A DNA stretch of 64,000 nt from Fibrobacterota bacterium (GTDB taxonomy: Bacteria; Fibrobacterota; Chitinivibrionia; Chitinivibrionales; Chitinispirillaceae), in NCBI GenBank assembly GCA_023459055.1, contig JAEWVR010000019.1, positions 38,480-102,479 of the forward strand, written 5' to 3'. How positions within the stretch are numbered: the first letter of the stretch is position 1; every line of letters begins with the position of its first letter. The notes beneath the pieces were generated by a model. That model was not told the DNA's origin, ran no database searches, and saw nothing but the letters and a program-made list of their open reading frames with translations. This document shows, in pieces, positions 5,763 to 60,214 of the stretch. Both the position numbers and the translations under genes were made by a program.

Positions 5763-6380
5763 ATGTTCTACATTCTGGTCAGTCTGATCCTGTTTGGAAT
5801 CCTGATTCTGGTTGCGATCAGTGTGAGTTTCAATAAAAAAGAAACCTCAGAAGAGCCAAATCCAGTACTGCATCAAAGCGGTATTTATTCGATCGTACGG
5901 AAAACACCACGGGATCAGCTCAGGGATGTTAAACCATCAAATGAAGAAATACGAAAATATCTGGAAAAGATAAACGTAAACAATAGAGATCCGGAAAATA
6001 TCAGCCTAACAACATCAGAAATAGATGCTTATGTTCGTGACTGGGATGATTCTCTGGACAGAAATATTGGATTAATTGAACAGGGTGATAGCGGTGGGAT
6101 TTCTTTCTATTACTATGATTTTAAACCAGATTACTGTGAAATCTGCGCAGATTACCTCAAAAAGGGGCAATTTGTGACACGGGAAGAAATTTATCAGTAT
6201 CCTCAAATAATTCCACCTTTTCATATCGGCTGTACATGCACACTTGTTGCGCATCACGGCGAAACACTTCAGGAAACAACAGAAATCGGTATGGTTCCCC
6301 TTTTTAAAAACGAAATCGCTCCGCGCCTCCCCGAGTGGCGCATGATTCAACAAACTAATGCAGTACGAGGTACAATCTAA
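5763..6380 (+). CDS. Hypothetical membrane-anchored protein with a C-terminal Cys/His cluster
   Basis: N-terminal TM helix. 'CEICADY...HIGCTCTL' has an H-x-G-C-x-C pattern reminiscent of phage Mu F / SPP1 gp7-like domains. The stop overlaps the start of the next gene (TAATG). Confidence 0.45.
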   Translation: MFYILVSLILFGILILVAISVSFNKKETSEEPNPVLHQSGIYSIVRKTPRDQLRDVKPSNEEIRKYLEKINVNNRDPENISLTTSEIDAYVRDWDDSLDRNIGLIEQGDSGGISFYYYDFKPDYCEICADYLKKGQFVTREEIYQYPQIIPPFHIGCTCTLVAHHGETLQETTEIGMVPLFKNEIAPRLPEWRMIQQTNAVRGTI

Positions 6381-16841: not shown

Positions 16842-16896
16842 GCCTCACCCCCCCGACCCCCTCTCCAATAAGAATTGTAGAGGGGGAGCTGGAGGT
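16842..16896. repeat. GC-rich palindromic repeat unit (GCCTCACCCCC...CCCCCTCTCCA-loop-TAGAGGGGGAG)
   Basis: Near-identical to the unit at 22032-22078. It forms an imperfect hairpin. Confidence 0.7.
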
Positions 16897-16952: not shown

Positions 16953-17027
16953 CTACTTCTTCACTTCCTTACTTCTTCACTTCCTTACTTCCTTACTTCC
17001 TTACTTCCCTATTTCCCTACTTCCCTT
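16953..17027. repeat. CTTCC-rich microsatellite (CTTACTTCC / CTTCACTTCC units)
   Basis: About 10 tandem copies of a CTTCC-containing unit in the aroD 5' region, immediately 3' of the SP-lyase-like gene. The complement is GGAAG-rich, like the repeat at 56233-56335. Confidence 0.8.
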
Positions 17028-20305: not shown

Positions 20306-21970
20306 ATGAGGGGGCTCATAATTACGTTATTCATGCTGGTTGCACTTCTGCAGTCACTTGCTACAGCACAGACAATTTCGATTAGCGGAACAGTTAAAAA
20401 TAGTGGTGGAGGTGCCATCAAAGATGTTACCTGTACGCTCGCCAAAGTCAGTGGTGTCAGTGCTACAACTGATGCCTCGGGCAATTTTTCCATCGTAACA
20501 ACAGCTGTAGTAAAAATGTCATCATCGGGAGCACAGCCATTAAGTTTCAGTCTGAATGGCAGAGAGCTATACATTCATAGCACCGATAAAGAGCTCAACG
20601 GTACAGCATCAGTATATAGCAGTGATGGCAAAAGGGTTTCTTCCGTAAACTTTACAAAAACAAATAGTTCATCCGGCTCGATTCTGTTACCAGCTTTTAC
20701 TGCCGGCCTTAACATTTTGAAAATCACCCTGAACGGAAAAACCTATACAAGCCCGCTCCTGCAACTCCCGGGTCTTTCAGCAAGACTTCAGTGTGTATCC
20801 GGCAATTCCGAAATAAACCAGCTCACACTTGCAAAGAGTGCTGCAGCAGCGGCTGATGTTGATACACTCATTATGAGAAAAACCGGTTTTACCGAGAAAC
20901 GTACACCGATCAGTTCATATACAGTATCAAATCTTGCAATTACTATGGATTCAATTGTTGCTACTACCTGTAATGCAACAACGCTCAAGGCTGCTGGAAT
21001 GTGCAGAAGTAATCATCAGATATTAATCGGTGCTGCGGTAAACCAGAGCGGTGTTAATAACGCTCTTATCGGTCAGGAGTTCAATTATGTAACAGCCGAT
21101 AATGCAATGAAATGGGATGCTACGGAGGGTAGTGAAGGTGTGTTTAATTTCAGTGCGGCTGATCAAATTGTAAGTGCTGCACAATCAAAAGGGGTGAAGG
21201 TAAAAGGCCACGCTCTTGTCTGGCATAACCAGCTCCCGAATTGGGTAAAATCAATTAACAGCCGTGATCGTATCCAGGCAGTAATGAAAAATCACATCGA
21301 AAAGGTTATGGAACATTTTGGCAATAAAATTATTGCATGGGATGTTGTTAATGAAGCGCTCTATACAGACAATGATAACGGTTCGGGTAATGCAAAAATG
21401 CGTGATACAGTGTTTTATAAACTGCTTGGCGAAGACTTCATTCCGCTGGCATTTAAATATGCCCGTGAATATGCAGACAGCCATAATATGAAAGAAATGA
21501 AACTGTACTATAATGATTATAGCATCGATGGCGATAATGACAAATCCCGTTTCCTTCGTAAAAAAGTAAAGGAATGGCTTGACAAAGGTGTACCTATTGA
21601 CGGAATTGGATTCCAGATGCATATCGGTCCTCCGAATAATATTCCCACTGCCCAGGCTGTAAAGGATAATATGGACTATTACGCAAGCCTTGGTCTTGAT
21701 GTCCTGATTTCTGAATGGGATATTAATCTTTGCGGCGGCGATGTGAGTTCATCACAGCAATCACAGTTATATCATGATATCACTGCTGTATGTGTCAATA
21801 ATCCCAGATGCGTAGCGATCACCTGGTGGGGAGTGAACGACAGTGAATCATGGCTTAACAGGTTCAATGGCTCGAAATGCAACGGTTCAAGTTCACAATC
21901 ATTGCTTTTCAATAATAATAAGCCAAAGGCTGTCTATACACAGGTGCTTGATGCACTTAATGGTAAATAA
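20306..21970 (+). CDS. Secreted endo-1,4-beta-xylanase, glycoside hydrolase family 10, with N-terminal Ig/carboxypeptidase-regulatory-like domain
   Basis: Signal peptide. GH10 blocks 'NAMKWDATE', 'GHALVWHNQLPNW', 'WDVVNEAL', 'LYYNDYS' and 'IDGIGFQMHI' are present. Confidence 0.8.
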   Translation: MRGLIITLFMLVALLQSLATAQTISISGTVKNSGGGAIKDVTCTLAKVSGVSATTDASGNFSIVTTAVVKMSSSGAQPLSFSLNGRELYIHSTDKELNGTASVYSSDGKRVSSVNFTKTNSSSGSILLPAFTAGLNILKITLNGKTYTSPLLQLPGLSARLQCVSGNSEINQLTLAKSAAAAADVDTLIMRKTGFTEKRTPISSYTVSNLAITMDSIVATTCNATTLKAAGMCRSNHQILIGAAVNQSGVNNALIGQEFNYVTADNAMKWDATEGSEGVFNFSAADQIVSAAQSKGVKVKGHALVWHNQLPNWVKSINSRDRIQAVMKNHIEKVMEHFGNKIIAWDVVNEALYTDNDNGSGNAKMRDTVFYKLLGEDFIPLAFKYAREYADSHNMKEMKLYYNDYSIDGDNDKSRFLRKKVKEWLDKGVPIDGIGFQMHIGPPNNIPTAQAVKDNMDYYASLGLDVLISEWDINLCGGDVSSSQQSQLYHDITAVCVNNPRCVAITWWGVNDSESWLNRFNGSKCNGSSSQSLLFNNNKPKAVYTQVLDALNGK

Positions 21971-21997
21971 GTAGTTGTTGATTTGATAGTTTGTGAA

Positions 21998-22031
21998 GGC
22001 CGGGATTGATTTAATCCCGGCCTTTTTTTTT
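21998..22031 (+). terminator. Rho-independent terminator of the xylanase gene
   Basis: GGCCGGGATTgatttAATCCCGGCC is followed by T9. Confidence 0.85.
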
Positions 22032-22345
22032 GCCTCACCCCCTGCCCCCTCTCCATTAAGACATGGAGAGGGGGAGTTGAAATGAGGGTTTCAGGGATAA
22101 TCCATGCCAAGGGGAATTACCCTCCCCCTGCCCCCTCCAAGGAGGGGATCTGGTGCGGGGTATGGTTGAGATGGTTGTGTGATAAGATCGGGAGATGTAT
22201 TCAGGCTGAAGCATTGCGGAAGCAGGAGACGCCCACCAGACTTAGACCTTATTCCCCAAAACTACGACCACACAACTCAAAAGTTCCCTCCCTCGGGAGG
22301 GTGGCACGCAGTGCCGGGAGGGGTACCAACGCCACAATTATCGCA
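22032..22345. repeat. Composite GC-rich palindromic repeat element, about 310 bp, containing three CCCTCC...GGAGGG hairpin modules
   Basis: Modules lie at 22032-22078, 22120-22160 and 22286-22333. The last two are paralogous to 25146-25185 and 25378-25432 inside hsdR. The six-frame ORFs here (22082-22390, 22179-22379) are translations of the repeat. Confidence 0.7.
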
Positions 22346-22560
22346 CCCCACCCCCAAATTACCACCTCACCACCATTGACTACTGCATAAATGGGATTTA
22401 GTTTATAATAGTCGGTTATAATGAATATCATTTCAGAAAAGTACAACTGGATCTATACGGGACACAAAAATCCCTGAAATGCACTGAATCACTGCGATTT
22501 TTAGTGAATCACACCAGACCTTTCTGATATTTTTAGTTATGTGTTACCAAAAGGTGGAAA

Positions 22561-22665
22561 ATGGCAAAAGCAACTGCGGCTACCGCAAAGGACGAACCTG
22601 TTCAAAAAGAATCGCTTGGCAATCTTGAAGTCTCACTCTGGAAAGCTGTTAAAGTGTTGGGGTAA
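22561..22665 (+). pseudogene. hsdM: hsdM 5' remnant (type I RM methyltransferase N-terminus, 34 codons then stop)
   Basis: 'MAKATAATAKDEPVQKESLGNLEVSLWKAVKVLG*' matches the conserved HsdM N-terminal 'LWxAADxLRG' region, then terminates. Confidence 0.55.
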
Positions 22666-22669
22666 TGCT

Positions 22670-22750
22670 TCAAAAATCCATATTCTCGAAAAGCTTCGTG
22701 ACACTTTGCTACCAAAGTTAATGAGTGGAGAGATTAGAATTTCAATTTAA
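22670..22750 (+). pseudogene. hsdS: hsdS 3' remnant (C-terminal conserved helix of the type I RM specificity subunit)
   Basis: 'ILEKLRDTLLPKLMSGEIRI' resembles the HsdS C-terminal consensus '...kkgLmqkLltGkiRv'. There are no target-recognition domains upstream. Confidence 0.5.
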
Positions 22751-24215
22751 AGGATCTTATATGATCAAGCTCTATCTTGATTGGAATGTCATTAACGGAA
22801 TGCGGACATGTACAGAAGTTGATGAACTTTTAAGCTTGAGAAAATATATTGAGAAAAATCGGTCTTATTTTGAAATTTACTATTCTCAAGCTCACTTGTC
22901 AGACCTTGCTGGGCAGAGGTATTTGTTTGATGATACAATAAAAGAAGATCTTGAATACTTATCAAAATTAACCGAAAATAAAGCACTTGTTATCAAGAAT
23001 GATATCGTGGATATTCAGTCAATTTCACCATTAGATTGGTATCAAACAATAATTGAGGATCACAAAATTCTGAATGTTGATTCTTTTGATGATTTATTAA
23101 AAATCATTTCAACAGATTGCCCTGAAACAAAACCATTAATTGACAATTACATCAGAGTTCTTAAAAGTACCCTCCTTCCAAGCATTCCAAAACAGTTCGA
23201 ACAACTAATTCCTGATATCGCTGGTAAAACATGTTATGATGCTTTTAACGCAATATTTAAACTGAGTAAATCTTGGATGCAAACAGATGCTTATAGTAAA
23301 GTAAGAAATTTGATTCAAAGTTTGTTAAACTTTAAAACAAGCACTCTTAGCAGTACGACCAAACCATTTATAGACATTAGTAAATCTTTCGAGAATTTGG
23401 GATCAAGTGTTACTTATGAGAATATAGAACAAACTGTTGAAAAATCATTTATCAGCAAAACCCCAGTGTGGTACAACAATATCATTTCGACTTATTTAAA
23501 TCTTGATATGTATGGATACAGTCAAGATGAAATAAGCATCAAAGATAATAAGAAAAAAACATTTCAGAATACTGCAAACGATGCGATACATGCAGCCTAT
23601 GCATCTGTTTGCCATTTTTTTATTATACAAGATAAGAAAGCTCGGCGTAAAACAGAAGCTACTTACAACCACCTTGAGATTAATACAACAGTTTTGAATC
23701 CCGTTAGAAAAAAGGAAAATTCTTCTTACATTTATTTTATCAGTAACGAATATATTGTTAGTCCTCAAACCGTCAAGGATTTATACCAATCTATATTGAA
23801 AACAATTGACATTGGTACTATTTTAAAAGAAACAGCTAATGATGGAACTCAGGTAATATTTTCAGTATATTCAACGAGTATATATTATGGTTTTTTTAAT
23901 AAGATCATTATAATTCCTGAAGAAAAATCATTTCAAATTGCATTAGCATTCAAGAAACCAACAAATTGTCCTATGATTAATCTTGTTTCTGTTGTAAAGT
24001 TAGCAAATCAATTAATTTCTCTTTTTGGTATACCTAATTGTGGTACAAAACAAGTTGAATTGTCACACTTTGATGCGTTTCGCGCAAATCAAAATTCAAA
24101 TTGGACACTTTATTGGCAAGATGCATTCTTAATTGTTTTTTCTGGTGGTGTTCAATTTTATTTCCCATGGATACCTCTTGAAAACACTGAGCCAAAGAAT
24201 CCTCAAACGAATTAA
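22725..24215 (+). CDS. Hypothetical 496-aa protein embedded in the decayed type I RM locus, AT-rich, no recognisable motifs
   Basis: A long ORF with a visibly lower GC content than its neighbours. No signal peptide or TM segment. It is co-directional and tightly spaced with hsdR, 16 bp upstream of it. Confidence 0.5.
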   Translation: MERLEFQFKGSYMIKLYLDWNVINGMRTCTEVDELLSLRKYIEKNRSYFEIYYSQAHLSDLAGQRYLFDDTIKEDLEYLSKLTENKALVIKNDIVDIQSISPLDWYQTIIEDHKILNVDSFDDLLKIISTDCPETKPLIDNYIRVLKSTLLPSIPKQFEQLIPDIAGKTCYDAFNAIFKLSKSWMQTDAYSKVRNLIQSLLNFKTSTLSSTTKPFIDISKSFENLGSSVTYENIEQTVEKSFISKTPVWYNNIISTYLNLDMYGYSQDEISIKDNKKKTFQNTANDAIHAAYASVCHFFIIQDKKARRKTEATYNHLEINTTVLNPVRKKENSSYIYFISNEYIVSPQTVKDLYQSILKTIDIGTILKETANDGTQVIFSVYSTSIYYGFFNKIIIIPEEKSFQIALAFKKPTNCPMINLVSVVKLANQLISLFGIPNCGTKQVELSHFDAFRANQNSNWTLYWQDAFLIVFSGGVQFYFPWIPLENTEPKNPQTN

Positions 24216-24230
24216 CACTCGATACATTTT

Positions 24231-27200
24231 ATGAGCACAAACAAAATCACCGAATCATCAATCGAAGAATACGCAATAAAGCTGCTTGAAAAGCAGGGGT
24301 TTGACTATTATTACGGGCCACAGATCGCACCGGACAGCGAATCACCATTGCGTCAATCGTTTGAGGAGGTGCTGCTTGCCGATCGCGTAAAAAGCGCTGT
24401 CGCACGAATTAATTCATCAGTTCCCGAAAGTGCCCGTGAAGATGCTTGTAAACAGATTGAACGCATCGCATCATCTGATCTTGTTGCCAACAACGAAACC
24501 TTTCACCGCATGCTGACAGAAGGCATATCAGTAGCCTATCAGAAAGACGGCAACAAACGCGGTGATCGAGTGTGGCTTATTGATTTTAATCATCCAGACA
24601 ACAACGACTTTTATGTTGTCAACCAGTTCTCAGTAACCTCAGCCGGTATACATGGTGGCAACGCAACAAAACGACCTGATATCGTACTGTTTGTCAATGG
24701 TATCCCGCTTGTCGTCATCGAACTCAAGAATCCCGCAGACGAAAAAGCAACGTGTCACACTGCCTTTAATCAGCTTCGAACCTACAAAGAGGCAATTCCT
24801 CAACTATTTACCTATAACGGGTTTACTATTATTTCAGACGGGCTCGAAGCAAAAGCCGGCACAATCTCATCAGATTTCAACCGCTTTATGGCATGGAAAA
24901 CAGCCGATGGCAAAAGTGAAGCATCACCGCTTGTCGGTCAGCTCGAAACACTAATCTATGGAATGCTGCACCGATCAACCTTACTTGACCTTATACGACA
25001 TTTTATCGTTTTTGAAAAGTCAAAACGTGAAGATAAAAACACCGGCCTGACAACAATCGCAACAGTAAAAAAGATGGCTGCATATCATCAGTACTATGCT
25101 GTCAACAAAGCAGTGGAGTCGACCCTCCGGGCCGCCGGGTTTGGACCCTCCCCTAACCCCTCCGAGGAGGGGAACTGGTGCGGTGGTGGTTGGGATGGTG
25201 GTGATGAGTTCGGGCCGGAGTTTGAGGCTGGGGGTGTTGAGGAAAACGAAGAGTCTGATCAGGTGTACACAAGTGCAGACCTTGACATTACGGGTAGATC
25301 GTCAAATAAGAATCATATCCCTACAAACGGCACCAGCCCCTCAAGCGCGGACGGTTCAAAGAGCCCCCCCGAAAAATCCCTCCCCGGGGAGAGTGGCACG
25401 CAGTGCCGGGAGGGGTACCAACGCCGCATCCTCCCCTACAACCCCATCCTGAAACAACGCGCCCACAACTTACGAGCAAACATGACCCTCCCCGAGGTCC
25501 TGCTGTGGAACCATCTAAAAAACGGGCAGATCCATGGTTTCGATTTCGACAGACAGCGGCCGATCGATAACTTTATTGTCGATTTCTATTGTAAAGATCT
25601 CATGCTCGCTATCGAGGTTGACGGAAGTAGTCATGATGGTGAAGAGGCTCAGACCCGTGATCGTATTCGTCAGAGCAGGCTTGAAAATCTTGGTGTACAT
25701 TTTTTGCGATTTGACAACGATGAGGTTCGTCAGAATATTCGCTCTGTCGTTGCAACAATTTCCGATTGGGTTTACAAACACAAAAACAACCTTGTCGGAC
25801 GATATACAAAACCGCTCCGGCGGCTTCCATCGTCGCTGAAGGTTGATCCTGCAGAGTATGGTTTACCGGATGTGAAAGTGCAAACTGCCGGTGACAAAAA
25901 AGGTGGTGTGGTCTGGCATACGCAGGGTTCCGGCAAATCGCTCACAATGGTGTTTTACACCGGGAAAATCGTTCTTGCCATGAATAACCCGACGGTACTG
26001 ATCATAACAGACCGCAATGATCTTGATGACCAGCTTTTCGATACTTTTGCTGCATCAAAACAACTGCTTCGTCAGGAACCGGTTCAGGCCGAAAATCGTG
26101 ATCATCTCAAGGACCTGCTCAAAGTTGCGTCCGGAGGTGTAGTGTTTACAACAATTCAGAAGTTTCAGCCGGATGATGGTAATGTGTATGAAATGCTGTC
26201 TGACCGTACAAACATCGTGGTAATTGCTGATGAAGCACACCGCACACAGTATGGATTCAAACCAAAAACGATCGACGCCAAAGATGAATCAGGTGCGATT
26301 ATCGGGAAAAAGGTAGTTTACGGTTTTGCAAAGTACATGCGTGATGCACTCCCTAATGCGACCTATCTTGGATTTACCGGTACACCAATTGAAAATGTCG
26401 ATGTTAACACTCCGGCAGTGTTTGGTAATTATGTTGACATTTATGATATTTCACAAGCGGTTGAAGATGGTGCAACGGTGCGTATCTATTACGAAAGCCG
26501 CCTTGCTAAAATCGTACTGAGTGATGAGGGTCGGAAACTGATTCAGGAGCTTGATGACGAACTGAAACAGGAGGATCTGACTGATACACAGAAAGCAAAA
26601 GCGAAGTGGACACAGCTTGAAGCGTTAATTGGCAGTGCAGACAGAATACAGCAGGTTGCCCGCGACATAGTAACCCATTTTGAACTGCGTCAAGAAGCAA
26701 TTGACGGTAAGGGAATGTTTGTCACCATGTCGCGAAGAATTGCTGCTGAGCTTTACAATGCAATAATAGCATTAAGACCGCAGTGGCATAGCGATGACCG
26801 CAAAAAAGGGGTGATAAAAGTCGTCATGACATCTGCATCTTCGGATGGCCCTGAAATTGCGCGGCATCATTCAACCAAAGATGATCGCAGAGCACTAGCA
26901 GAAAGAATGAAAGATCCCGATGATGAATTGAAACTGGTAATTGTCCGTGACATGTGGCTTACCGGTTTTGATGTTCCATCACTGCATACCCTCTACATTG
27001 ACAAACCGATGAAAGGTCATACCCTGATGCAGGCAATTGCACAGGTAAACCGAATTTACAAAGATAAAACAGGTGGTCTTGTTGTTGACTATCTCGGAAT
27101 TGCAGCAGATCTAAAAAAAACACTCTCCTTTTATGCTGATTCGGGTGGAAGAGGTGATCCGGCACTTGCTCAGGAAAAAGCGGTTCAGCTCATGCTTGAG

Positions 27201-28145
27201 AAACTTGAAGTTGTATCGCAGATGTTCCATGGGTTTCCCTATGAGGATTATTTTGAAGCAGACACCGGGGCAAAATTATCAATAATCCTTGCAGCAGAGG
27301 AACATATTCTCAGTATTGATGAAGGAAAAAAACGTTTTATTAATGAAGTAGTTTTGTTGTCACAGGCATTTTCAATTGCACTGCCACATGATCAGGCAAT
27401 GGATGTAAAGGACGAAACTGCGTTCTTTCAGGCAGTAAAGGCACGTCTTGCAAAATTTGACAGAACAGGAACAGGTAGAACTGATGAGGAACTTGAGACC
27501 GCAATTCGTCAGATAGTTGACAAGGCGCTTGTTACCGAAAAGGTAATCGACATCTTTGATGCTGCCGGAATCAGGAAACCTGATATTTCGATTTTGTCAG
27601 AAGAGTTTCTGCTTGAAGTGCAGAATATGAAACATAAGAATCTTGCTCTGGAAGTACTCAAAAAATTATTGAATGATGAGATCAGTGTACGGTTGACAAA
27701 AAACATGATTCAGGGAAAAACACTGATGGAGATGCTTGAGAACTCTATCAGAAAATACCACAATAAAATCCTTACTGCAGCAGAGGTAATAGAAGAGCTG
27801 ATCAAACTCAGTAAAGAAATCACTGAAATGGATAAGATTCCCAAAGCTATGGGATTGTCAGATTATGAATATGCGTTCTATACTGCAATCGCTGATAATG
27901 ACAGCGCAAAGCAGCTCATGAAAAAAGAGCAATTACGGGAACTGGCTGTTGTTTTGTATGAGAAGGTACGCGAGAATGCATCAATAGACTGGACAATTAA
28001 AGAAAGTGTTAGAGCAAAGCTCAAGGTAATAGTAAAGCGGATTCTCAGACAATATGGGTATCCCCCGGATATGCAGATGCTCGCAACGGAAACCGTGCTC
28101 AAACAGGCAGAAAAGATAGCAGATGAACTGACAAAGGATAAGTAG
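24231..28145 (+). CDS. hsdR: Type I restriction enzyme R subunit (HsdR) carrying an in-frame DUF559-domain insertion of about 248 aa
   Basis: PD-(D/E)xK 'RPDIVLF...VVIELK'. 'QLRTYKEAIPQLFTYNGF...SDG' and 'AAYHQYYAVNKA' are HsdR-specific. Helicase motif I 'GGVVWHTQGSGKSLTM' and motif II 'VVIADEAHRTQYG' are present. The ORF is 1304 aa long, whereas HsdR is usually about 1000-1100 aa. Confidence 0.85.
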   Translation: MSTNKITESSIEEYAIKLLEKQGFDYYYGPQIAPDSESPLRQSFEEVLLADRVKSAVARINSSVPESAREDACKQIERIASSDLVANNETFHRMLTEGISVAYQKDGNKRGDRVWLIDFNHPDNNDFYVVNQFSVTSAGIHGGNATKRPDIVLFVNGIPLVVIELKNPADEKATCHTAFNQLRTYKEAIPQLFTYNGFTIISDGLEAKAGTISSDFNRFMAWKTADGKSEASPLVGQLETLIYGMLHRSTLLDLIRHFIVFEKSKREDKNTGLTTIATVKKMAAYHQYYAVNKAVESTLRAAGFGPSPNPSEEGNWCGGGWDGGDEFGPEFEAGGVEENEESDQVYTSADLDITGRSSNKNHIPTNGTSPSSADGSKSPPEKSLPGESGTQCREGYQRRILPYNPILKQRAHNLRANMTLPEVLLWNHLKNGQIHGFDFDRQRPIDNFIVDFYCKDLMLAIEVDGSSHDGEEAQTRDRIRQSRLENLGVHFLRFDNDEVRQNIRSVVATISDWVYKHKNNLVGRYTKPLRRLPSSLKVDPAEYGLPDVKVQTAGDKKGGVVWHTQGSGKSLTMVFYTGKIVLAMNNPTVLIITDRNDLDDQLFDTFAASKQLLRQEPVQAENRDHLKDLLKVASGGVVFTTIQKFQPDDGNVYEMLSDRTNIVVIADEAHRTQYGFKPKTIDAKDESGAIIGKKVVYGFAKYMRDALPNATYLGFTGTPIENVDVNTPAVFGNYVDIYDISQAVEDGATVRIYYESRLAKIVLSDEGRKLIQELDDELKQEDLTDTQKAKAKWTQLEALIGSADRIQQVARDIVTHFELRQEAIDGKGMFVTMSRRIAAELYNAIIALRPQWHSDDRKKGVIKVVMTSASSDGPEIARHHSTKDDRRALAERMKDPDDELKLVIVRDMWLTGFDVPSLHTLYIDKPMKGHTLMQAIAQVNRIYKDKTGGLVVDYLGIAADLKKTLSFYADSGGRGDPALAQEKAVQLMLEKLEVVSQMFHGFPYEDYFEADTGAKLSIILAAEEHILSIDEGKKRFINEVVLLSQAFSIALPHDQAMDVKDETAFFQAVKARLAKFDRTGTGRTDEELETAIRQIVDKALVTEKVIDIFDAAGIRKPDISILSEEFLLEVQNMKHKNLALEVLKKLLNDEISVRLTKNMIQGKTLMEMLENSIRKYHNKILTAAEVIEELIKLSKEITEMDKIPKAMGLSDYEYAFYTAIADNDSAKQLMKKEQLRELAVVLYEKVRENASIDWTIKESVRAKLKVIVKRILRQYGYPPDMQMLATETVLKQAEKIADELTKDK
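25132..25875 (+). mobile_element. In-frame insertion within hsdR: GC-rich palindromic repeats followed by a DUF559 (Vsr-like endonuclease) domain
   Basis: It sits between 'AVNKAVESTLRA' and 'QTAGDKKGGVVWHTQGSGKS', which are normally adjacent. The DUF559-like block is 'LPEVLLWNHLKNGQIHGFDFDRQRPIDNFIVDFYCKDLMLAIEVDGSSHDGEEAQTRDRIRQSRLENLGVHFLRFDNDEV'. GC-rich modules at 25146-25185 and 25378-25432 are paralogous to those at 22120-22333. Confidence 0.6.
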
Positions 28146-28337
28146 TCATTGTTCAGTATGTCGGTAATTCCGACATACTGCCTCTAAAGGTAAAGATTAC
28201 TCGGTTAATTACTGCAATCCTGTTGTTTTTATTTCAGTCTGTTAATATAGGTATCATTTGAATAGTTTGGAACATTTGTACATTGAGCATACTTTTATGT
28301 TGTCATCAAAAATACCAATCAAGAAAGTCTCCACATC

Positions 28338-29474
28338 ATGACAAAAGAAAAATTCGCAATATTCATTGACGCCGAAAATCTCATTAACTGGATCAAAAAC
28401 GATGGTCCGGAGAAGCTGCTTGAGGAGTTGAGTACGCAGGGGCAGGTTATTGTGCGTCGGGCGTATGGGAAATGGACAAATCAGAATCTGAGCCAGCTTC
28501 AGGAGAATCTGAATCGCAACGGATTTGAACTGCTGCATAATTTTCATCCTGTCAGTGGGAAAAATTCAAGCGATATTCAGATGACCGTTGACGCAATGGA
28601 GTATGCACTTAAACTATCTGATGTTAGCTGGTTTGTTCTGGCAACCGGCGACAGTGATTTTTCTCCGCTCTTTAGAAAGCTGCGGGAGATTGGCAAAGAG
28701 GTTATCGGGATTGGTCCCAAATCACCCTTAAGTGAATGCGTAAAAACATCATGCTCACGATATATCTACACATATGATGAAAATGCGGATGAAAAAGAGA
28801 TACTCGCATTTGAACGTGACGAAATTGAGGAGCTGCTGGAATCAATTGTAGTAACCCATGATGGGCCAATAAATATTTCACATCTAAAAAATCATATTCT
28901 TCAAATAGACAATGCATTCAATGAAAAACAAATGGGGTTTAAGAATTTCAGCAGTTTTATTGATTCCTTTGACTTTCTTAAGATTGAAAAAGATATGGTG
29001 AGTTACGTTCGTGTCTCTGATGCAAAAAACAGCTATAAAACACTACTCAAAAGAAAAAACTGGGACTTTCTTCCAAAAACAATAATTGACAAATTGTATA
29101 AAGAATGTATCACCATACCAGCGCTTCCCCGCCAGCAGCTTATTGATAAAGTGATTGCAAAAAATATCGAAGGAACCTCGTCCAGTATCGTCAGGAAGTT
29201 TTTACAGATAATTTACAAAGCAAGACTTATGCAGACTCAGCTGACAAACGGTGATGACAAAATCGTGAAAGTAATTTTAACTGACGAGTATCTTCAAAAA
29301 ATCGACCTCGCAATGCTCTCCCGGTTACTTTCTGCGATCAACGAAACAAGCAGCAAGATAGAAAAAGATGAACTGAAAAAACTATTATATGGTAACTATA
29401 CCGATAAGGAATTTGAGAAAATTATGCTGATTGCAAAAGAGAATATGATAAACAAGGATGACAATGATCATTGA
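28338..29474 (+). CDS. NYN-domain (LabA-like RNase) protein with two OST-HTH/LOTUS domains
   Basis: The N-terminus '[10 protein letters not shown]...[10 protein letters not shown]...[18 protein letters not shown]' is NYN-like. The downstream repeats '[31 protein letters not shown]' are OST-HTH-like. Confidence 0.65.
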
Positions 29475-29847
29475 GCAGTGTCCCTGCAGTGCAATAGTTT
29501 TTGGGTTGGTACGCAGTGTCAGCAGCCTGCAAAATGTCCGAACTGTGACGATAATACACTGCTCTCCTATCCAGCAAATAAATAGTAACCGGATTCTGAA
29601 ATCATCTTAGAACGTTCGCATATTCTTACAAGACAACTTTTGCAAAACATTTGGATCATTTTAAAACACTTGAATTAATCACATATAAAACAACATGTTA
29701 TGCACTCATTGACAGATAATGATCCTTCGCATAAACCATTACCTATTCCGCTATTAGTTCCGCCAAACGGTACACTGCTCTCCGATTTCATCCATAATTT
29801 CCTGAAACTATTGCAGAAGTCAGGATTTTAGGATATATTACATTATT

Positions 29848-31966: not shown

Positions 31967-34900
31967 TCAATTGTGCGACTTACGTTTCTCCTGACGTTTA
32001 CGTTCCCGTTCCTCTTTTAAAAAACGGGCAATCAACTCTCTTTGAAACCACAGGCTTCTATTAATGGTCGTTTCCAACGCAGCAATCGTTCCACTTTTTT
32101 CTGCACCTTCAATTTCGATCATCTCCGATACTGGTGCATTTTTCAGTGAAGGCTGTGTGTGCAAATCTTTATTACTTTGTAAATATTTTAGCCATTCCTG
32201 CATAATATTCATCTGATTCTCAAGAACACTTAATACAGACTTCATTGTATCGGGGTTGACCGTATCACTCACACCGGTATCCGCATTGTTCAATGATGAT
32301 GCCACTTTATTCATTCCGGAAGTCAATGCAGCACTTAATTCGTTAGCGATTTTTACAATTGACGCTTCAGTAACCTGATTTTTATGTTCTTTTTCCTGAA
32401 TCACAATTTGTGGAGATAGATTCTTACCTTGTGCAATTGCATTGCTGATATCACTCAGGCCATCACCAACTTTACATAACTGTAATACCGCCTGCCCTAC
32501 CTTATCATCAGCTTTTGCAAACTTATTCTGATTAAAGGATCGTTTAATTTCCTCCCAACGTAACCGCTCAACTTCAGAAAGACACCCCAGAAGCTCTTTC
32601 CACTTAAGTAAATTGGCTTCTGCCCCCGTAGTCAATGTCTGGGCATCATTTTCGTAGGAGCGCAAGACGGTTCCGAATAATTCTTCATCATTCATAACAG
32701 GTACAATACGTTCTGCAATACGGTTCATATTTCTGTATGATCCCTGAAGCTTAAAAGCAGGTTCAGTCCTGTATTCATTTGCCTGTGCAGCGCTGCGTAT
32801 ATACTCCTGATTTACTTTTAAAACGATATCCCGTACGCGCAGTAATTTTCGTATTACCGAAACAAGATCACTCATGAGGTTGGCACTGTAATCACCACTC
32901 AGCTCAATTTTTTCCATTGAGTTGTTTTCGCATGCATTTACAAAAGCATAGAGATCACAAAGCGGTCGTTTTGTCATTTCACTTAAAACGGGATTTGATG
33001 TCAATGCATTTTCGATATAACTGAGTTTAAAGGCTTTTTCATTGGCGCTCAGCATGTCACCAAGATTATAGGTATCTGCACGGTTTGCAAGCATATCGGG
33101 TATTTTAAATCGTTCGCCGCTTTCGGTATACGGGTTACCGGCCATAACAACGGCAACTTTCTTGCCCCTGAAATCATAAGTACGACTTTTACCATTGTAA
33201 ACGCCCTCAATTTTACGCTGGGCATCACAAAGTGAAATGAATTTTTCCAGAAACTCCGGATTACAATGCTGAATATCGTCAACATAGATCATGACATTGT
33301 TTCCCATTTCAAGCGCAAGATTCAGTTTCTGCAGCTCCTCACGGGAACTTGCGTTTGGAGCCTCCGCCGGATCCAGTGATGTAACCTTATTACCAACTGC
33401 GGGACCGTTGATTTTCATAAATATCAATCCAACCCTGCTTGCAACATATTCCATCAATGTTGTTTTTCCATAGCCCGGTGGTGAGATCAGAAGCAACATT
33501 CCCGATAAGTCAGTACGTTTCTTTTCGCCAACAACGCCGATCTGCTTTGCGAGGTTATCACCAATAAGTGGCAGATACAACTCATTAATTAGCTTATTAC
33601 GCACAAAGGAGCTCATGATTTTCGGATTAAACTCATCAAGTTTCAGCCTTTGTTTATAGGAATCACGAACGGTTCTTTTTATGTCCCTGCATGCCTGGAA
33701 TTTGACAACCACATTTTTCTCGTAAACATCCAGTTCATGCACAAACATTGCGTATGTCAACTTTAATTCTCCATTGACAATTTTAGGATGATCACCCCGA
33801 AGCCCCTTAATTGTCCGTGATGTCGGTGTTTCAATGATTTCACCCGGTAGTCGTACTTGTAAACCGGTAATTAATTCAAGTGCGATTAGCACTGCTGCTT
33901 CTTCAATAAAAGGTTTCAACTCAGGAACATTTAATTCACTGAAGCAGGCCCGGATCCAGCTATGCACCATTTCAAACTGCGCTGCAGGATCTCCATTAAG
34001 CAGATTAACCGATTCTATAAATTTCTGATAAACAGTTTTTTCTTTCAGACAGGCAGTCACTTTCCGGCATAGTGTATCAGCTTCAATGCTGATTACAAAT
34101 TTATTACCTCTACCCCGTTCATCACACAAATACCTGACAGCATCGGAAGCAAGCGAATCATCACAAAAGCAGACAGTTTTACAGAAATCCGCAACCATGC
34201 GTTGCAATTCCTTAATACAAGAGTGATCATACATTCCTTTATTAAAAGTAGTCTGCGCAATATGCATGCCTTTTAATTGCTTGTCAATCCTCTCCTTGAT
34301 CTCCTGATCCTGCGGCCATAGCCAGAATAATCGCGCGAGTGCCCGTGCTGATGGCATATAGGTTAGAAGATCTATTGACAAACTTAATTCCGCACAGTTT
34401 TTTATGATCAGCGCGGCATCGAAATCATGTACACCCTTCACATACCCTTCATCATAACGGCTGGTCATGAATTTAGAGACTTTTACAACAAGTTCATCGA
34501 CCTGACTTGCTGCAATTGAATCCATTGGATCAAACGATCCATCCTTTGATGCCTTAATAATCTGAAAGGCAAGATATTCCGCTCTGTAAACATTACTATT
34601 TTCAGAAATCAGTTCCTGTGCCCAGACATTCTTTGTGGAATCAAGCTCTTCAGAAACGATTGGTTCGTAAAAATCGGTTCCTGTAAGATGGAAATACATT
34701 TGCTCATTTTTGTAGATGATGGCAAGATCAAGTGGCTGGGTATTTACAGAAAAATTATGACGCCCGAGCTTTATAATATCTTTTCCATCAACATATAATT
34801 CCAATGAATCAAGAAGTTTACGTGATGCATCTTCATGAAGCGTTTTAAGGCGGCTCTGGATATCATCTGCTTTTACCGAATCACCAAGCGTATCAAGCTT

Positions 34901-37369
34901 CTCAATCAGCTCCCGCACTTTGTCAACCATCATATCTGATGCAAGATAGGTATTGATATCATTCTGAGTTGTAAATGAACGCAGACGGGTTTCAATTCCC
35001 TGCAAAATGCGCTCGGCAGCGCTCATAAGTGATGTACATGTGCGGTTACGCTGTTCCTGAAGCATTACCCTTTTAGACTCAAACGCCTGATTAACTTCAA
35101 TTCTCTTCTGAGCAAGTACCGGTACAAATTCATCAAAGTCGGCGAATCTGCTATCAAGTTCTTCAAACAGTACCATAATTTTTGATAAAAATTCATCGCA
35201 CTTTGAAGCATCATCGGTAATATCAAGATAATTTGCAATTGACTGATCAAGCAGTTTAATCTGTGCGTTAAATTCTGCCGTCCCCTCACCACTACGCAGG
35301 TTTTTCACGTGCATCCTCAGACGGCTTCTTATCCTGTTAAGTTCTCCGAATATCAATGCAATTTTTTCTGTGATTTGTGTAGCATTGACAGGATCATCAA
35401 TTTTAAGATTACCGACAATCTCGACCAGAAGCTCAAGATCTTTACCCGTTTTATCAATTTCAGCCTCAACCCTGCGTCCATCAGATGTTTTCGTAACCGA
35501 AGCGACATCATTATCGTGCTTTACAACAGCATCATGATATGCCCGAAGCCCATCAGGGGTAAGTAGAAACGCGATACAGGCGCTGCTGATCTTTTCGAAT
35601 GCATCCTTTGCACTTTTCTCCAGAATACTGATTGCCTCAAGATCAGCATATTTCATCTCTTTTAGAGATGTAATATCGCCACGAAGTGAACGGATATCAG
35701 CCAGCGCCGTTACAAATCTATCAATACGTTTCGGCTCAAGATTACCTGTTGACAGCAGAAGTTCATCTGAGCGCTGCGTTACTTTGGAAAGTGCATCACG
35801 TGTCTGCTTTTTTACTGCATTCACTTTCTCAAACTCTTCAACCGCTGATGCAGCAATGGTTCTTATGGCGATAAGTGTATTCTTTAAACCAAAACCTTCC
35901 GGTTTATCAATCCAGAAATGAGAATCGAGTATGCGATTCGCTTCCCGTGAAATATCGATGTATAAGTTGGCATATGAATCCTCTTTTAGCAGCAGACTTA
36001 AAACAGTCTGACATTCAGACATGCAACGAACGATTTCCTTATTTCCAACTTTGTAGAGAAGGGAATCGGTATTGACTGCAGGTGGTATATAACCGGTACC
36101 AAAAAACGGTGTCTGCCATATTTGTAATACATGACTGTTTCGAGGTTCTTTTTCTGCTTTAAACAGAACCTGTTCTCCATTGTCAAAGTAGGTAAAGCCA
36201 TGGCAGATAACCGGAGTGTCTACTTTCTGTTCAATTCGATTGTAAGGTAATATGACACAAATACCATCAACAGCATTATAGAAAACATATTGAAAATCTT
36301 CACCATTAGGTGCGGCTATTTTTTTCTCGAAGCGTAAATTTTCAATTGTCGAATCAAATATTTTAAATACACCAGTCTGAAGGTAATACCCATTTGGAAA
36401 AATGATACCGCTGTTATCAGGAAGTAATATGCAGGCATCCTCAATGGTGTCGATTCGTACAACTTTCTGAGTTTTTTCGTTGTAAAGAAGATATCTGAAA
36501 TTCTTCTCCTGAAAAGGGCGAACTTTAAGAAGAATTAAATTTCCGACAATTGCATAAAATATTTCAGCGTCATCAAGTGTCTGATCTTTATTCTCCACTG
36601 ATTCACAATAGATACCTCTTCCGGTGCTCGTATTATCTTCAACCTTTATTGTAAGATCACCACCGATTGTTTCAACAAACAAGCGGTCATCTATAGAAAT
36701 GTGTGGATGCTCACCCGGACGGAAATTTTCTCTTCTTGTCCGTTTCCATTCAAATTCATGCTGCGGAGGCGATACCAGCTCCTGTTCACTGCGATTGTTG
36801 ATATATATGAGTTTACCTTTTTCAAAACCCCATTTGAATGTCTTTATATCAGAGACATTATTACCGGTTCTGAAAACCATATACAGAAAAGGACCATTAA
36901 CAACGAGTTTAGTCAGAAACGTGTTTCTATAGTATTTATAGAGTTCCTGAAAATCACGGATAAAATTGTCATTTTTTAAAATATCAATCGATACTTCATT
37001 AAAATGATGATTTTCATATTCATAAACAGAAAAAACATCTTCAATAGCCGTTGTCGATTTAAGACCGAATTGTACATTATAACCAAAGATAAAACGGTTT
37101 CCAAATGATGCCAGATCCCGCGGAATGCAGCTGTTTTCGGTAGTAATCCGTTCACTGCATATGAGAGCTGTATTCACAGCTCCAAAGACATCTTTACGTG
37201 CTTTATTAACTTTATCAAGTGTGTCACGAAGCTGTTTGGCACATTGATCAAGACGCTGCCTGATCACTACATAGGTGCCACTATCAATCTGGTTTTGTTC
37301 AATATCATTTGAAGTATTCTGAACGGGTTCCTTATCCTGTGGATTATCTGTCTTTTCCATATATGTCAA
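31967..37369 (-). CDS. Giant (1800 aa) soluble protein with a single MoxR/dynein-type AAA+ ATPase module in its C-terminal third; function unknown
   Basis: Walker A 'ISPPGYGKTTLMEY'. Walker B 'VMIYVDDIQHCNP'. Sensor region 'VVMAGNPYTESGERFKIPDMLANRADTYNLG' follows the MoxR 'NP...xLxxAxxDRF' pattern. No TM or signal peptide. Long predicted helical and coiled regions. Confidence 0.7.
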   Translation of the reverse strand: MTYMEKTDNPQDKEPVQNTSNDIEQNQIDSGTYVVIRQRLDQCAKQLRDTLDKVNKARKDVFGAVNTALICSERITTENSCIPRDLASFGNRFIFGYNVQFGLKSTTAIEDVFSVYEYENHHFNEVSIDILKNDNFIRDFQELYKYYRNTFLTKLVVNGPFLYMVFRTGNNVSDIKTFKWGFEKGKLIYINNRSEQELVSPPQHEFEWKRTRRENFRPGEHPHISIDDRLFVETIGGDLTIKVEDNTSTGRGIYCESVENKDQTLDDAEIFYAIVGNLILLKVRPFQEKNFRYLLYNEKTQKVVRIDTIEDACILLPDNSGIIFPNGYYLQTGVFKIFDSTIENLRFEKKIAAPNGEDFQYVFYNAVDGICVILPYNRIEQKVDTPVICHGFTYFDNGEQVLFKAEKEPRNSHVLQIWQTPFFGTGYIPPAVNTDSLLYKVGNKEIVRCMSECQTVLSLLLKEDSYANLYIDISREANRILDSHFWIDKPEGFGLKNTLIAIRTIAASAVEEFEKVNAVKKQTRDALSKVTQRSDELLLSTGNLEPKRIDRFVTALADIRSLRGDITSLKEMKYADLEAISILEKSAKDAFEKISSACIAFLLTPDGLRAYHDAVVKHDNDVASVTKTSDGRRVEAEIDKTGKDLELLVEIVGNLKIDDPVNATQITEKIALIFGELNRIRSRLRMHVKNLRSGEGTAEFNAQIKLLDQSIANYLDITDDASKCDEFLSKIMVLFEELDSRFADFDEFVPVLAQKRIEVNQAFESKRVMLQEQRNRTCTSLMSAAERILQGIETRLRSFTTQNDINTYLASDMMVDKVRELIEKLDTLGDSVKADDIQSRLKTLHEDASRKLLDSLELYVDGKDIIKLGRHNFSVNTQPLDLAIIYKNEQMYFHLTGTDFYEPIVSEELDSTKNVWAQELISENSNVYRAEYLAFQIIKASKDGSFDPMDSIAASQVDELVVKVSKFMTSRYDEGYVKGVHDFDAALIIKNCAELSLSIDLLTYMPSARALARLFWLWPQDQEIKERIDKQLKGMHIAQTTFNKGMYDHSCIKELQRMVADFCKTVCFCDDSLASDAVRYLCDERGRGNKFVISIEADTLCRKVTACLKEKTVYQKFIESVNLLNGDPAAQFEMVHSWIRACFSELNVPELKPFIEEAAVLIALELITGLQVRLPGEIIETPTSRTIKGLRGDHPKIVNGELKLTYAMFVHELDVYEKNVVVKFQACRDIKRTVRDSYKQRLKLDEFNPKIMSSFVRNKLINELYLPLIGDNLAKQIGVVGEKKRTDLSGMLLLISPPGYGKTTLMEYVASRVGLIFMKINGPAVGNKVTSLDPAEAPNASSREELQKLNLALEMGNNVMIYVDDIQHCNPEFLEKFISLCDAQRKIEGVYNGKSRTYDFRGKKVAVVMAGNPYTESGERFKIPDMLANRADTYNLGDMLSANEKAFKLSYIENALTSNPVLSEMTKRPLCDLYAFVNACENNSMEKIELSGDYSANLMSDLVSVIRKLLRVRDIVLKVNQEYIRSAAQANEYRTEPAFKLQGSYRNMNRIAERIVPVMNDEELFGTVLRSYENDAQTLTTGAEANLLKWKELLGCLSEVERLRWEEIKRSFNQNKFAKADDKVGQAVLQLCKVGDGLSDISNAIAQGKNLSPQIVIQEKEHKNQVTEASIVKIANELSAALTSGMNKVASSLNNADTGVSDTVNPDTMKSVLSVLENQMNIMQEWLKYLQSNKDLHTQPSLKNAPVSEMIEIEGAEKSGTIAALETTINRSLWFQRELIARFLKEERERKRQEKRKSHN

Positions 37370-56232: not shown

Positions 56233-56335
56233 CAGGGGGAAAGGAAGGAAAGGAAGATAAGGAAGAGAAGAAGGAAAGGAAGAAGAAGGAAGGTTGAGGT
56301 TGAGGTTGAGGAAGAGGTTTAAGATGAGGCGGAGA
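56233..56335. repeat. GGAAG / GGTTGA purine-rich microsatellite
   Basis: (GGAAG/GGAAAGGAAG)n followed by (GGTTGA)3. It lies between the coaE stop and the sugar-transferase start. ORF 56182-56370 is a translation artefact of this repeat. Confidence 0.8.
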
Positions 56336-59736: not shown

Positions 59737-60156
59737 TCAATAAGGTCTTCTTGCATCGCCTTTCTCTCCCCTTTTATCTTTCTTTTTCCTGGCTTGACCC
59801 TTTTGATGTTTTTCCTCTGTACTTGGTCTTGCATTCTTAGTATGCTCGCCTTCTTGTTTGATTGCCTCATCGTCAGCTAACTTACAAATATCAGCAATTT
59901 TGTCACCAATTATTGCACCAACTATTATACCAATTCCAGCCTCTATCGCTTTTTCACCTATTACTAAAGGAATGAGAATGACAATTGCAAGTTTGCCCTC
60001 TGGATCCATAAAATTGACAGGATCACTATTTACATACCGGTATAAATTCGCATCCCCACCCTCAAACCCTATTGGGTCTTTACTTGTCCACCGCCCTGCA
60101 AAAGCATCATAATCACGTACGCCAAATCGTACAAAACCTGTTTCTGAATCATACAA
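59737..60156 (-). CDS. Orphan rhs C-terminal fragment: conserved YD/RHS core end + short variable toxin tip
   Basis: '[53 protein letters not shown]' is the RHS core end with its DPxG boundary. A variable tip of about 60 aa follows. Confidence 0.7.
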
Positions 60157-60214
60157 CCCTCCGGCGAATCCAAAGGGGGTAAATCGTTTGTTGGGATTTT
60201 TTTGGAGTATATTT

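Follow-up and report, generated by a model that had tools for sequence, protein, structure and literature searches.

Whether a second nuclease domain inside a restriction subunit is a working part of the enzyme or a mobile passenger is the question raised by one gene in the window, as the whole analyzed stretch of 64,000 nucleotides from a Fibrobacterota bacterium (contig JAEWVR010000019.1) is called here. The gene, hsdR, encodes the R subunit of a type I restriction enzyme and is interrupted in frame by an element that includes a DUF559 (Vsr-like) predicted nuclease domain. An earlier note on this DNA had proposed either that the segment was domesticated or inserted neutrally into a linker, or that it was a fused second nuclease domain, which would be unusual. 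The evidence described here makes it probable that the insert is a selfish mini-element, composed of a DUF559 gene and flanking GC-rich hairpin modules, that has settled, in frame and without splicing, in a permissive and disordered HsdR linker. On that reading, a conserved defense gene has been colonized repeatedly at one precise surface linker by nuclease mini-elements that are never spliced out, so that the protein carries the parasite as an extra domain.

The host open reading frame (ORF) has the N-terminal PD-(D/E)xK nuclease, the superfamily 2 (SF2) motor, and the C-terminal helical domain that define an HsdR. In Pfam comparisons, in which the matches are all far above their cut-offs, HSDR_N covers residues 6–217, SWI2_SNF2/ResIII residues 552–784, T1R_D3-like residues 881–954, and T1RH-like_C residues 971–1298, and the hallmarks PDIVLF...VIELK, GSGKS, and ADEAHR can be read directly in the translation. 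The EcoR124I HsdR in the PDB matches the window protein with an E value of about 1e-30. The PADLOC REase_I model PDLC03040 scores 1248 bits, with its match broken into two at about model position 283. The frame is preserved throughout, and the product is the single polypeptide of 1304 residues originally described.

The place and extent of the interruption follow from comparison of the linker that joins the nuclease to the motor domain, ahead of helicase motif I, with that of the 120 best database matches to the window HsdR, aligned with MAFFT. In the window protein, 263 residues separate the block YHQYYAVNKA (residues 285–294) from GGVVWHTQGSGKS (residues 558–570). Homologues that lack the insert (about 1071–1120 residues long) have 40–44 residues in the same place (range, 15–78), rather than the roughly 20 that had been taken as normal, and these are arranged as VESTLRASGY, about 15 variable residues, and then ESPESYGVPGVKSQPVGDKK. 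The excess in the window protein is about 220–233 residues and begins at nucleotide 25143 (residue 305), after VESTLRAAGF. In pairwise DNA alignments of insert-bearing with empty alleles, the insert follows RA(A/S)G(Y/F) and precedes (V/x)ESPESYG; nucleotides 25842–25875, VDPAEYGLPDVK, are conserved host linker that is present also in homologues lacking the insert. The in-frame DUF559 element first reported in this linker is real, and the alignment confirms its point of insertion, but the excess is about 220 residues rather than 248, and the element runs from 25143 to between 25800 and 25841 rather than from 25132 to 25875.

Two GC-rich repeat modules, which encode a disordered stretch, and an intact DUF559 domain downstream of them make up the insert. 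The GC content rises to 0.63 at 25100–25249 and 0.64 at 25325–25474, in surroundings of 0.38–0.48. In an AlphaFold2 (AF2) model of residues 1–800 of the window HsdR, built from a 64-sequence alignment, the module-encoded residues 306–398 are predicted to be disordered (predicted local distance difference test (pLDDT) values of 24–38), residues ~400–523 form a confidently predicted compact α/β domain (pLDDT 83–96), and residues 524–537 are again predicted to be disordered (pLDDT below 50). As modeled, then, the insert is a separate globular domain on disordered tethers.

The domain matches PF04480 at residues 408–511 with an E value of 3.5e-29 (101.3 bits versus a cut-off of 20.6), covering profile positions 4–105 of 109, which bears out its original designation as a clear DUF559 domain. 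A phmmer search of the PDB with the domain returned 3HRL (E value 1.9e-16), with the IVDF and E-x-DG-x-x-H residues aligned and IVDFYCKDLMLAIEVDGSSHD of the domain opposite IVDFMCVTPKLIVEADGGQHA of 3HRL; the same search did not return 3R3P. The catalytic-type residues of the D ... E-x-D-G-x-x-H core are kept in all 34 copies found embedded in the homologues described below. By its sequence, the domain is assigned to the DUF559/Vsr-like PD-(D/E)xK family.

Two other types of interrupting element were considered and rejected. No Hint-family Pfam match was found (E ≤0.01), and the junctions are F|G and V|D (...RAAGF|GPSP... and ...SSLK|VDPAEYG), in agreement with the original judgment that the insert is not like an intein. 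An Rfam E-value scan of 21900–26100, covering introns and known RNAs, gave no match within the insert. The element is translated as part of HsdR and is spliced neither as RNA nor as protein.

Nei-Gojobori estimates indicate how the parts of the element evolve. Between the window and L007, a related locus with about 90% nucleotide identity, the DUF559 codons have a dN of 0.020, a dS of 0.67, and a dN/dS of 0.030 over 106 codons, whereas the adjoining host codons have a dN/dS of 0.064. At the protein level, the DUF559 part is under purifying selection, contrary to the suggestion of a neutral insertion. At the collinear homologous locus L002, the domain is 79% identical in amino acid sequence and the host part 72–80%, a similar divergence that fits one shared insertion for the sub-lineage of homologues P0001, P0002, P0121, and P0122. 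In the module region, dN/dS is 0.93 versus L002 and 1.16 versus L009, and the proportion of synonymous differences (pS) is well below that of the neighboring regions; the modules are conserved as nucleotide sequence and not as peptide.

Such values leave hardly any credibility to the idea that the insert is a dead passenger (a decaying relic held open only by the hsdR frame) or an assembly chimera formed at a repeat. That idea draws on the degenerate state of the restriction-modification (R-M) locus in the window, on the disorder and protein-level neutrality of the module-encoded part, and on the tendency of assemblies to break at modules, as the contigs L006 and L007 both begin there, inside the element. 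A relic would, however, have to reconcile its decay with the low dN/dS of the domain, its full-length Pfam match, and the collinear L002 homologue. As to a chimera, the identical protein is found on six contigs and the same architecture recurs in dozens of independent assemblies, those of isolates (Flagellimonas) among them, so that the insert is not the misassembly that the earlier note had considered as a possible refutation.

The insert is neither unique nor universal: a DUF559 domain is present at the same insertion point, in a linker of more than 100 residues, in 34 of the 120 best homologues, and most of the others lack the domain. A universal, ancestral domain, the other refutation considered at the outset, is not what the homologues contain. 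Nor is a second nuclease domain in HsdR as unusual as it had been thought to be, given its recurrence at this site and the GIY-YIG domain already reported in an HsdR (PMC1564403). The presence of the element also explains the over-long proteins of this kind that databases now annotate as “R subunit/very-short-patch-repair endonuclease.” The sources of the homologues include Planctomycetota, Leptospirales, Spirochaetes, Lentisphaerota, Gammaproteobacteria, and Bacteroidota, among others. With few exceptions, the 120 proteins share about 80% identity with the window protein in their host parts, and its own non-insert part is likewise about 80% identical to HsdRs of about 1077 residues from many phyla. 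Identity at this level across phyla suggests that the HsdR family has spread horizontally as part of a mobile R-M family.

The embedded domains fall into distinct types. Type A (RKILPYNP...FIVDFYCKDLMLAIE.DG.SH...LVGR) includes those of the window protein and of P0002, P0003, P0005, P0007, P0036, P0051, and P0091, and type B (NYF.LPYNPKLKERARELR.AGNLSEVLFWNQVK...) the remaining copies embedded in the same linker; the two are only 43–46% identical over 124 core columns. In a neighbor-joining (NJ) tree of the host parts, P0001, P0002, P0003, P0004, and the pair P0028/P0039 are scattered among proteins without an insert. Host parts that are 93.4% identical carry a type A domain in P0003 and a solo module in P0041; at 92.1% identity, P0004 has type B and P0052 an ordinary linker without an insert; at 94.3%, P0091 has type A and P0108 type B. 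By these comparisons, the insert lineages disagree with the HsdR tree, and the linker is a hot spot in which either of two DUF559 lineages, or solo modules, can be found. The same HsdR family has two further hot spots of insertion outside this linker, at residues ~266 and ~1000. A third DUF559 type follows query residue ~266 in P0025 and P0107; after residue ~1000 there is a GIY-YIG domain in P0107, while P0120 has module-only peptides and P0007 and P0036 have inserts of 24 residues.

Pairs of closely related alleles illustrate the element as a cassette. In L009, the locus of P0003, a 669-nucleotide cassette lies between direct repeats of a ~40-nucleotide module, TACCCACCCCTARCCCCTCCCAGGAGGGGAAYATAATTTC, and on the right the module is repeated in tandem twice more; L010, the locus of P0041, has near-identical flanks and exactly one TACCCACCCCTARCCCCTCCCAGGAGGGGAAYATAATTTC module at the site. 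The single module is the expected product of recombination between flanking modules and equally would serve as the landing pad for a module-flanked cassette. In the pair L011/L012, the element stands in place of the variable part of the linker, about 15 codons long. At the right end of the window copy, the tail at 25800–25841 has no CCCCTCC/GGAGGGG module, whereas the right flanks of L009 and L011 do have one; this tail represents a right-hand module that has degenerated or else what remains of the original variable linker.

The modules themselves form a widespread repeat family. Those in hsdR hold inverted repeats of 5–7 bp, for example CCCCTCC-GA-GGAGGGG and GGCAC-GCA-GTGCC. Both of the GC-rich palindromic modules first noted are indeed present, but they are palindromic only in these short stems and their folds are no more stable than those of dinucleotide shuffles (z = +0.2 and -0.6), so that their distinguishing mark is repetition. 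Both recur between genes in the window, where 22100–22400 aligns with 25135–25460 at a mean column identity of 73%, with two blocks of about 90% and a segment on the insert side partly opposite gaps; no DUF559 ORF follows this intergenic copy (22100–22390) in the ORF list. An exact 25-nucleotide pattern of the module 1 core, CCCCTAACCCCTCCNNGGAGGGGAA, occurs in at least 120 genome stretches from at least five phyla (Cyanobacteriota, Bacteroidota, Calditrichales, Planctomycetota, and Hydrogenedentota). Among the 120 module loci listed, 6 have a DUF559 gene, each 15–229 nucleotides from the module, and only 4 of the modules lie inside long ORFs. A window-specific pattern of module 2 gave no matches in the genome collection, and a module homologous to module 2 lies upstream of DUF559 in L006. 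Solo modules fill the HsdR linkers of P0017, P0041, and P0101. The module pair resembles a miniature inverted-repeat transposable element or a Rickettsia palindromic element (RPE) in that it is short, contains inverted repeats, is present in many copies, and occurs both between genes and in frame.

Tandem copies of modules occur in two related genes. In P0051 (1405 residues), the module to the right of DUF559 has grown, within the HsdR frame, to a tandem array of about 150 residues made of QEGNLTFQEG(D/N)TAS units. In L006, positions 1–700 contain four tandem copies of module 1, then module 2, a type A DUF559, and the right flank of HsdR, ETPASYEVPGTELQPAGDRKGG; the frame stops right after GDRKGG of that flank and an unrelated methyltransferase gene follows, so that hsdR is truncated just past the element.

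The same association is found outside HsdR. Among the matches listed, the closest relatives of the window DUF559 domain are free-standing proteins of 122–175 residues, 60–73% identical, from Bacteroidota and Cyanobacteria. All four free-standing DUF559 genes examined (L004, L133, L134, and L135, the last three picked without regard to modules) have CCCCTCC-loop-GGAGGGG modules at most 200 nucleotides away. In L004, CCCCTCCAAAGGAGGGGCCAGGGGTGGGTG lies 25 nucleotides ahead of the ATG and CCCACCCCTAACCCCTCC past the stop codon; in L135, a direct repeat of about 68 nucleotides stands on both sides of the gene. The flanking modules are inverted in L004 and direct in L009 and L135, and several ORFs extend into PTPNPSGEGN module repeats. 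The overall genomic pattern is one of many solo hairpin repeats and a few nuclease genes that are always adjacent to them. In L133 (positions 1–2393; Acidiluteibacter ferrifornacis, GCA_009909615.1), a free-standing type A DUF559 gene begins 2 nucleotides after hsdS, upstream of an hsdR of the same family without an insert. Type I operons seem to be a preferred home of DUF559 genes even when these are unfused.

In the NJ tree, the embedded type A copies are not monophyletic relative to the free-standing ones, and they are as similar to free-standing genes (up to 81%) as they are to one another. This bears on whether the insert could descend from a single ancient fusion in the ancestor of the HsdR family, with precise loss on many independent occasions since. 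All 34 copies share one insertion point, flanking direct repeats would ease precise deletion, and the solo module of L010 could be the footprint of one such event. A history of loss is nonetheless very improbable, as hosts up to 94% identical carry domains as different as types A and B, most insert-less linkers are the ordinary conserved 40–44 residues with no module footprint, and the embedded type A copies are no closer to each other than to genes outside HsdR.

The preferred explanation for these patterns, a mobile mini-element, can be set out as a series of steps. Modules would first seed permissive, stop-free sites, and DUF559 cassettes could then enter or leave by recombination between modules. 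The nuclease probably promotes movement in a homing-like manner by cutting at or near module-bearing sites. The host would tolerate the insertion as the extra domain hangs on floppy tethers, and the element may travel between phyla along with the horizontally spreading HsdR family. The window copy is probably immobilized, because its right-hand module has been lost.

Purifying selection on the domain might instead reflect a benefit to the host, in which case DUF559 would contribute to the action of the restriction enzyme, for example as a second nuclease or nickase, by sensing mismatched or modified DNA, or as an anti-restriction back-up, and would have been recruited repeatedly because it is useful. 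The conservation of catalytic-type residues in all 34 embedded copies is compatible with such adaptive accretion, as are the reliance of the embedded copy on hsdR for its translation, the occurrence of insert-bearing genes within complete operons, the free-standing DUF559 and GIY-YIG genes in type I operons, and one clade in which every sampled HsdR has the insert. Several observations nevertheless make accretion unlikely. Most close homologues do without the domain, forms of about 1077 residues dominate, and some of these are 92–93% identical to insert-bearing ones. Three DUF559 lineages and a GIY-YIG domain have entered three different sites, the tethers are disordered and fast-evolving, and the native PD-(D/E)xK domain of the window HsdR is intact by its Pfam match. 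The flanking modules, the solo-module alleles, and the cassette-like direct repeats mark a mobile element and not a fused domain.

The interpretation of the insert as a selfish element has evidence to contend with as well. Its right-hand module is absent from the window copy, and no target-site duplication was recognized; an 8-nucleotide inverted pair at 25131–25138 and 25817–25824 is not long enough to be counted. The embedded copies lack a start codon, which means that the nuclease can be made only as part of HsdR, an awkward arrangement for a purely selfish role. No DUF559 protein is known to have demonstrated nuclease activity or mobility, searches of the literature found no biochemical data for close relatives, and the closest solved structure, 3HRL, is a structural-genomics entry. 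The position of the Acidiluteibacter DUF559 gene, between hsdS and hsdR, and that of the L002 GIY-YIG gene, between hsdM and hsdS, could point to a functional tie with type I systems instead of mere hitch-hiking. The one Bacteroidota-like clade in which every sampled HsdR has the insert in the NJ tree is compatible with long vertical retention, possibly with benefit to the host. Finally, the 120 best matches are biased toward insert-bearing proteins, since the insert adds to the score, the NJ trees carry no support values, and the non-monophyly of the type A copies depends on small differences in identity (78–81%).

Several known systems share features with the element as interpreted here. The nearest is the GIY-YIG (Slx1-like) domain at ~800 of the HsdR MCA0838 of Methylococcus capsulatus, described by Dunin-Horkawicz, Feder and Bujnicki in 2006; it is absent from a ~80%-identical homologue of another phylum and was read as a unique, recent, and probably non-functional insertion (PMC1564403). 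In both cases, a small nuclease domain from a family rich in selfish elements lies in frame inside a type I HsdR. The window domain differs in having a DUF559/Vsr-like fold in the linker before motif I; moreover, MCA0838 was reported as a unique case in 2006, whereas the DUF559 insertion is recurrent, involves several insert lineages, and is tied to hairpin modules. The GIY-YIG site in P0107 (~1000, or ~780 after subtraction of the DUF559 insert) is probably the same as that in MCA0838.

The RPEs are palindromic repeats inserted in frame in ORFs as well as between genes, adding a peptide at permissive surface positions (review, PMC10969869). Modules 1 and 2 resemble them in lying both in hsdR and in the intergenic region at 22.1–22.4 kb, as do the solo modules in HsdR linkers. 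Unlike the RPEs, which bring no enzyme and are confined to one genus, the window element brings a complete, folded, and selected predicted nuclease domain, and its module family spans several phyla with few of the listed modules in long ORFs.

Homing endonuclease genes offer another comparison. Vsr, DUF559, and DUF2726 belong to one PD-(D/E)xK clade with the intron homing endonuclease I-Bth0305I, PDB 3R3P (review, PMC3424549). Shared superfamily and clade, presence or absence at a precise site of a conserved gene, and discordant phylogenies all recall such genes; by sequence comparison, presence/absence at one precise site and an element history unlike that of the host are homing-type properties. 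The window insert has neither the intron or intein shelter (no Rfam intron in 25100–25900 and no Hint match) nor the free-standing place of a homing gene, it is retained in the finished HsdR protein, and the cutting of empty alleles that characterizes homing is putative here. A likeness to the repetitive extragenic palindromic sequences and their associated transposases (REP/RAYT; REPtrons and REPINs) is confined to the genomic pattern of dispersed intergenic hairpin repeats with a few protein genes always flanked by them; RAYTs are HUH/Y1 transposases, whereas DUF559 is a PD-(D/E)xK nuclease whose role in mobilization is putative.

A broader and tentative proposal is that type A DUF559 proteins may be dedicated nucleases of cross-phylum REP-like repeats (ACCCACCCCTNNCCCCTCC-N2-4-GGAGGGG), a PD-(D/E)xK counterpart of RAYT/REP, and that nuclease and repeat together might also be propagated, unspliced and in frame, as a “homing domain” within a restriction gene that is itself horizontally mobile, with a resident module as the landing pad. 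If true, this would give a function to one large DUF family and would represent a third way, beside introns and inteins, for a homing-type nuclease to reside within an essential reading frame. The large and uncharacterized DUF559 family is tied to a short hairpin repeat of Cyanobacteriota, Bacteroidota, Planctomycetota, and other phyla, and this tie suggests a testable function in module-directed cutting or recombination. Searches of the literature found no description of DUF559 inside HsdR or as a repeat-associated mobile gene, its mentions being only incidental and one of them in fact referring to DUF5590. The wider pattern of hairpin repeats, associated DUF559 genes, and an unspliced “homing domain” may merit more attention than the decayed copy in the window. 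Coordinates of the element and of related features are collected in the table.

Features of the hsdR locus in the window (positions are those of the window; a dot marks a feature given without strand)
Feature	Position	Strand	Evidence and remarks
hsdR (R subunit of a type I restriction enzyme), with the element inserted in frame	24231..28145	+	1304 residues; ORF list
Inserted element, maximal extent (residues 305–537)	25143..25841	+	Right end uncertain within 25800–25841; linker lengths and DNA alignments of insert-bearing with empty alleles
Left host flank YHQYYAVNKAVESTLRAAGF (residues 285–304), last conserved helix ahead of the insertion point	25083..25142	+	Kept in 120 of 120 homologues with or without insert; AF2 helix at 285–301
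Repeat module 1, GACCCTCCCCTAACCCCTCCGAGGAGGGGAACTGGTGCGG..., peptide PSPNPSEEGNWCGGGW..., of the cross-phylum CCCCTAACCCCTCC-NN-GGAGGGGAA family	25144..25213	+	Copy at 22118–22190; GC 0.63; pLDDT below 50
Repeat module 2, AAAAATCCCTCCCCGGGGAGAGTGGCACGCAGTGCCGGGAGGGGTACCAACGCCGCA, peptide SLPGESGTQCREGYQRR, directly 5' of the DUF559 reading frame	25372..25428	+	89% identical to 22280–22336 (57-nucleotide block, repeat family D4)
DUF559 (Vsr-like PD-(D/E)xK) predicted nuclease domain (residues 393–523), RRILPYNP...LVGRY	25407..25799	+	Pfam PF04480, PDB 3HRL, AF2; no start codon of its own
Fast-evolving tail TKPLRRLPSSLK (residues 524–537)	25800..25841	+	20–27% amino acid identity to P0002, P0003, and P0122; barely conserved; pLDDT below 50
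Right host flank VDPAEYGLPDVKVQTAGDKKGGVVWHTQGSGKS, conserved linker end and helicase motif I	25842..25940	+	Conserved as ESPESYGVPGVKSQPVGDKKGGVVWHTQGSGKS in homologues without insert
Intergenic copy of the 5' part of the element without DUF559: module 1, spacer, module 2, degenerate trace of the first ~12 DUF559 codons	22100..22390	+	Alignment with the insert; D4
hsdS remnant, last 28 codons and stop	22664..22750	+	64% identical (E value 2e-11) to the last 28 residues of L002 HsdS
Separate GC-rich hairpin CCCCCTCTCCATTAAGACATGGAGAGGGGG, 12-bp stem, at the edge of the module-rich junction	22038..22079	.	Repeat D7/I8

The R-M locus that carries the element in the window is decaying. The order of its parts is a GH10 xylanase gene, a module-rich stretch at 22030–22390, the hsdS remnant, an ORF of 496 residues, and hsdR. 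A motif screen (NPP[FYW]; D-x-x-G-x-G) of window ORFs of at least 120 residues flagged no HsdM-like ORF, and there was no HsdM or HsdS Pfam match among the called genes of L001, the 24 kb around hsdR. HsdR acts only within the M2S1 complex and depends on the hsdM and hsdS products to find DNA. Because hsdM is absent from the window and hsdS is reduced to a stub, the window HsdR::DUF559 protein is most likely an orphan unable to restrict DNA, unless hsdMS lies elsewhere in the genome. The gene should accordingly be read as an orphan hsdR in a decaying locus; a functional restriction system equipped with a novel second nuclease would be the wrong reading.

At the homologous loci L002 and L009–L012, both hsdM and hsdS are present, and complete insert-bearing operons elsewhere have the order hsdM, (accessory genes), hsdS, (Abi_C, RhuM, OLD/TOPRIM, UvrD...), hsdR, which indicates that the insertion is compatible with an intact system. 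In L007/L008, positions 1–1967 align with window positions 25481–29484, and a 2038-nucleotide deletion corresponding to window positions 26151–28188 takes away most of the HsdR motor and the C-terminal domains, leaving the DUF559 codons intact. At the junction in the window (22030–22750), the xylanase terminator is followed by the module-rich, GC-rich stretch and then by the hsdS stub. Because the end of the deletion coincides with the DUF559-less copy of the 5' part of the element, the loss of hsdS and hsdM may have been caused by recombination at the repeats.

Other features of these loci were recorded along with the element. The 496-residue ORF (22725–24215) occupies the slot in which related operons have accessory defense genes (Abi_C, RhuM, OLD/TOPRIM, TIR, or UvrD); it has no Pfam or PADLOC match and is not similar to the Abi_C gene that L002 carries in that slot, and its GC content of 0.26–0.35 is very low compared with that of hsdR. 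In L002, the locus of P0002, a segment of about 1.09 kb at 5850–6980 between hsdM and hsdS contains an ORF of 85 residues and the free-standing GIY-YIG gene. It has a direct repeat of about 40 nucleotides from the 3' end of hsdM on both sides and other hairpin modules, tcggtcgcttcggctccgctcagcgaccg, inside, and appears to be another selfish nuclease gene within that operon.

The separate hairpin at the edge of the module-rich junction has a predicted DNA fold of -13.5 kcal/mol (z = -3.65), a stability that none of 200 shuffles reached. Its second copy is at 16850–16891; both share the leader TTGCCTCACCCCC, with stems of up to 12 bp, and the pair represents a repeat family distinct from the DUF559 modules. 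Adjoining hsdR on the plus strand, at 28338–29474, is an NYN/OST-HTH (LOTUS) protein gene, and nearby on the minus strand, at 31967–37369, is a gene for a protein of 1800 residues with DUF3686 (“ATPase involved in DNA repair”), DUF7902, and an AAA domain; neither has a PADLOC match. Imperfect 8-nucleotide tandem repeats of the CTTCACTTCCTTA type are present at 16954–17025; 39 kb away on that strand, at 56234–56285, is a purine-rich counterpart, AGGAAGGAAAGG. Toward the end of the window, a direct repeat of 199 nucleotides (59987–60185 and 60952–61150) is 88% identical between copies 965 nucleotides apart, in a region where the minus-strand ORFs look like those of RHS/YD-repeat proteins.

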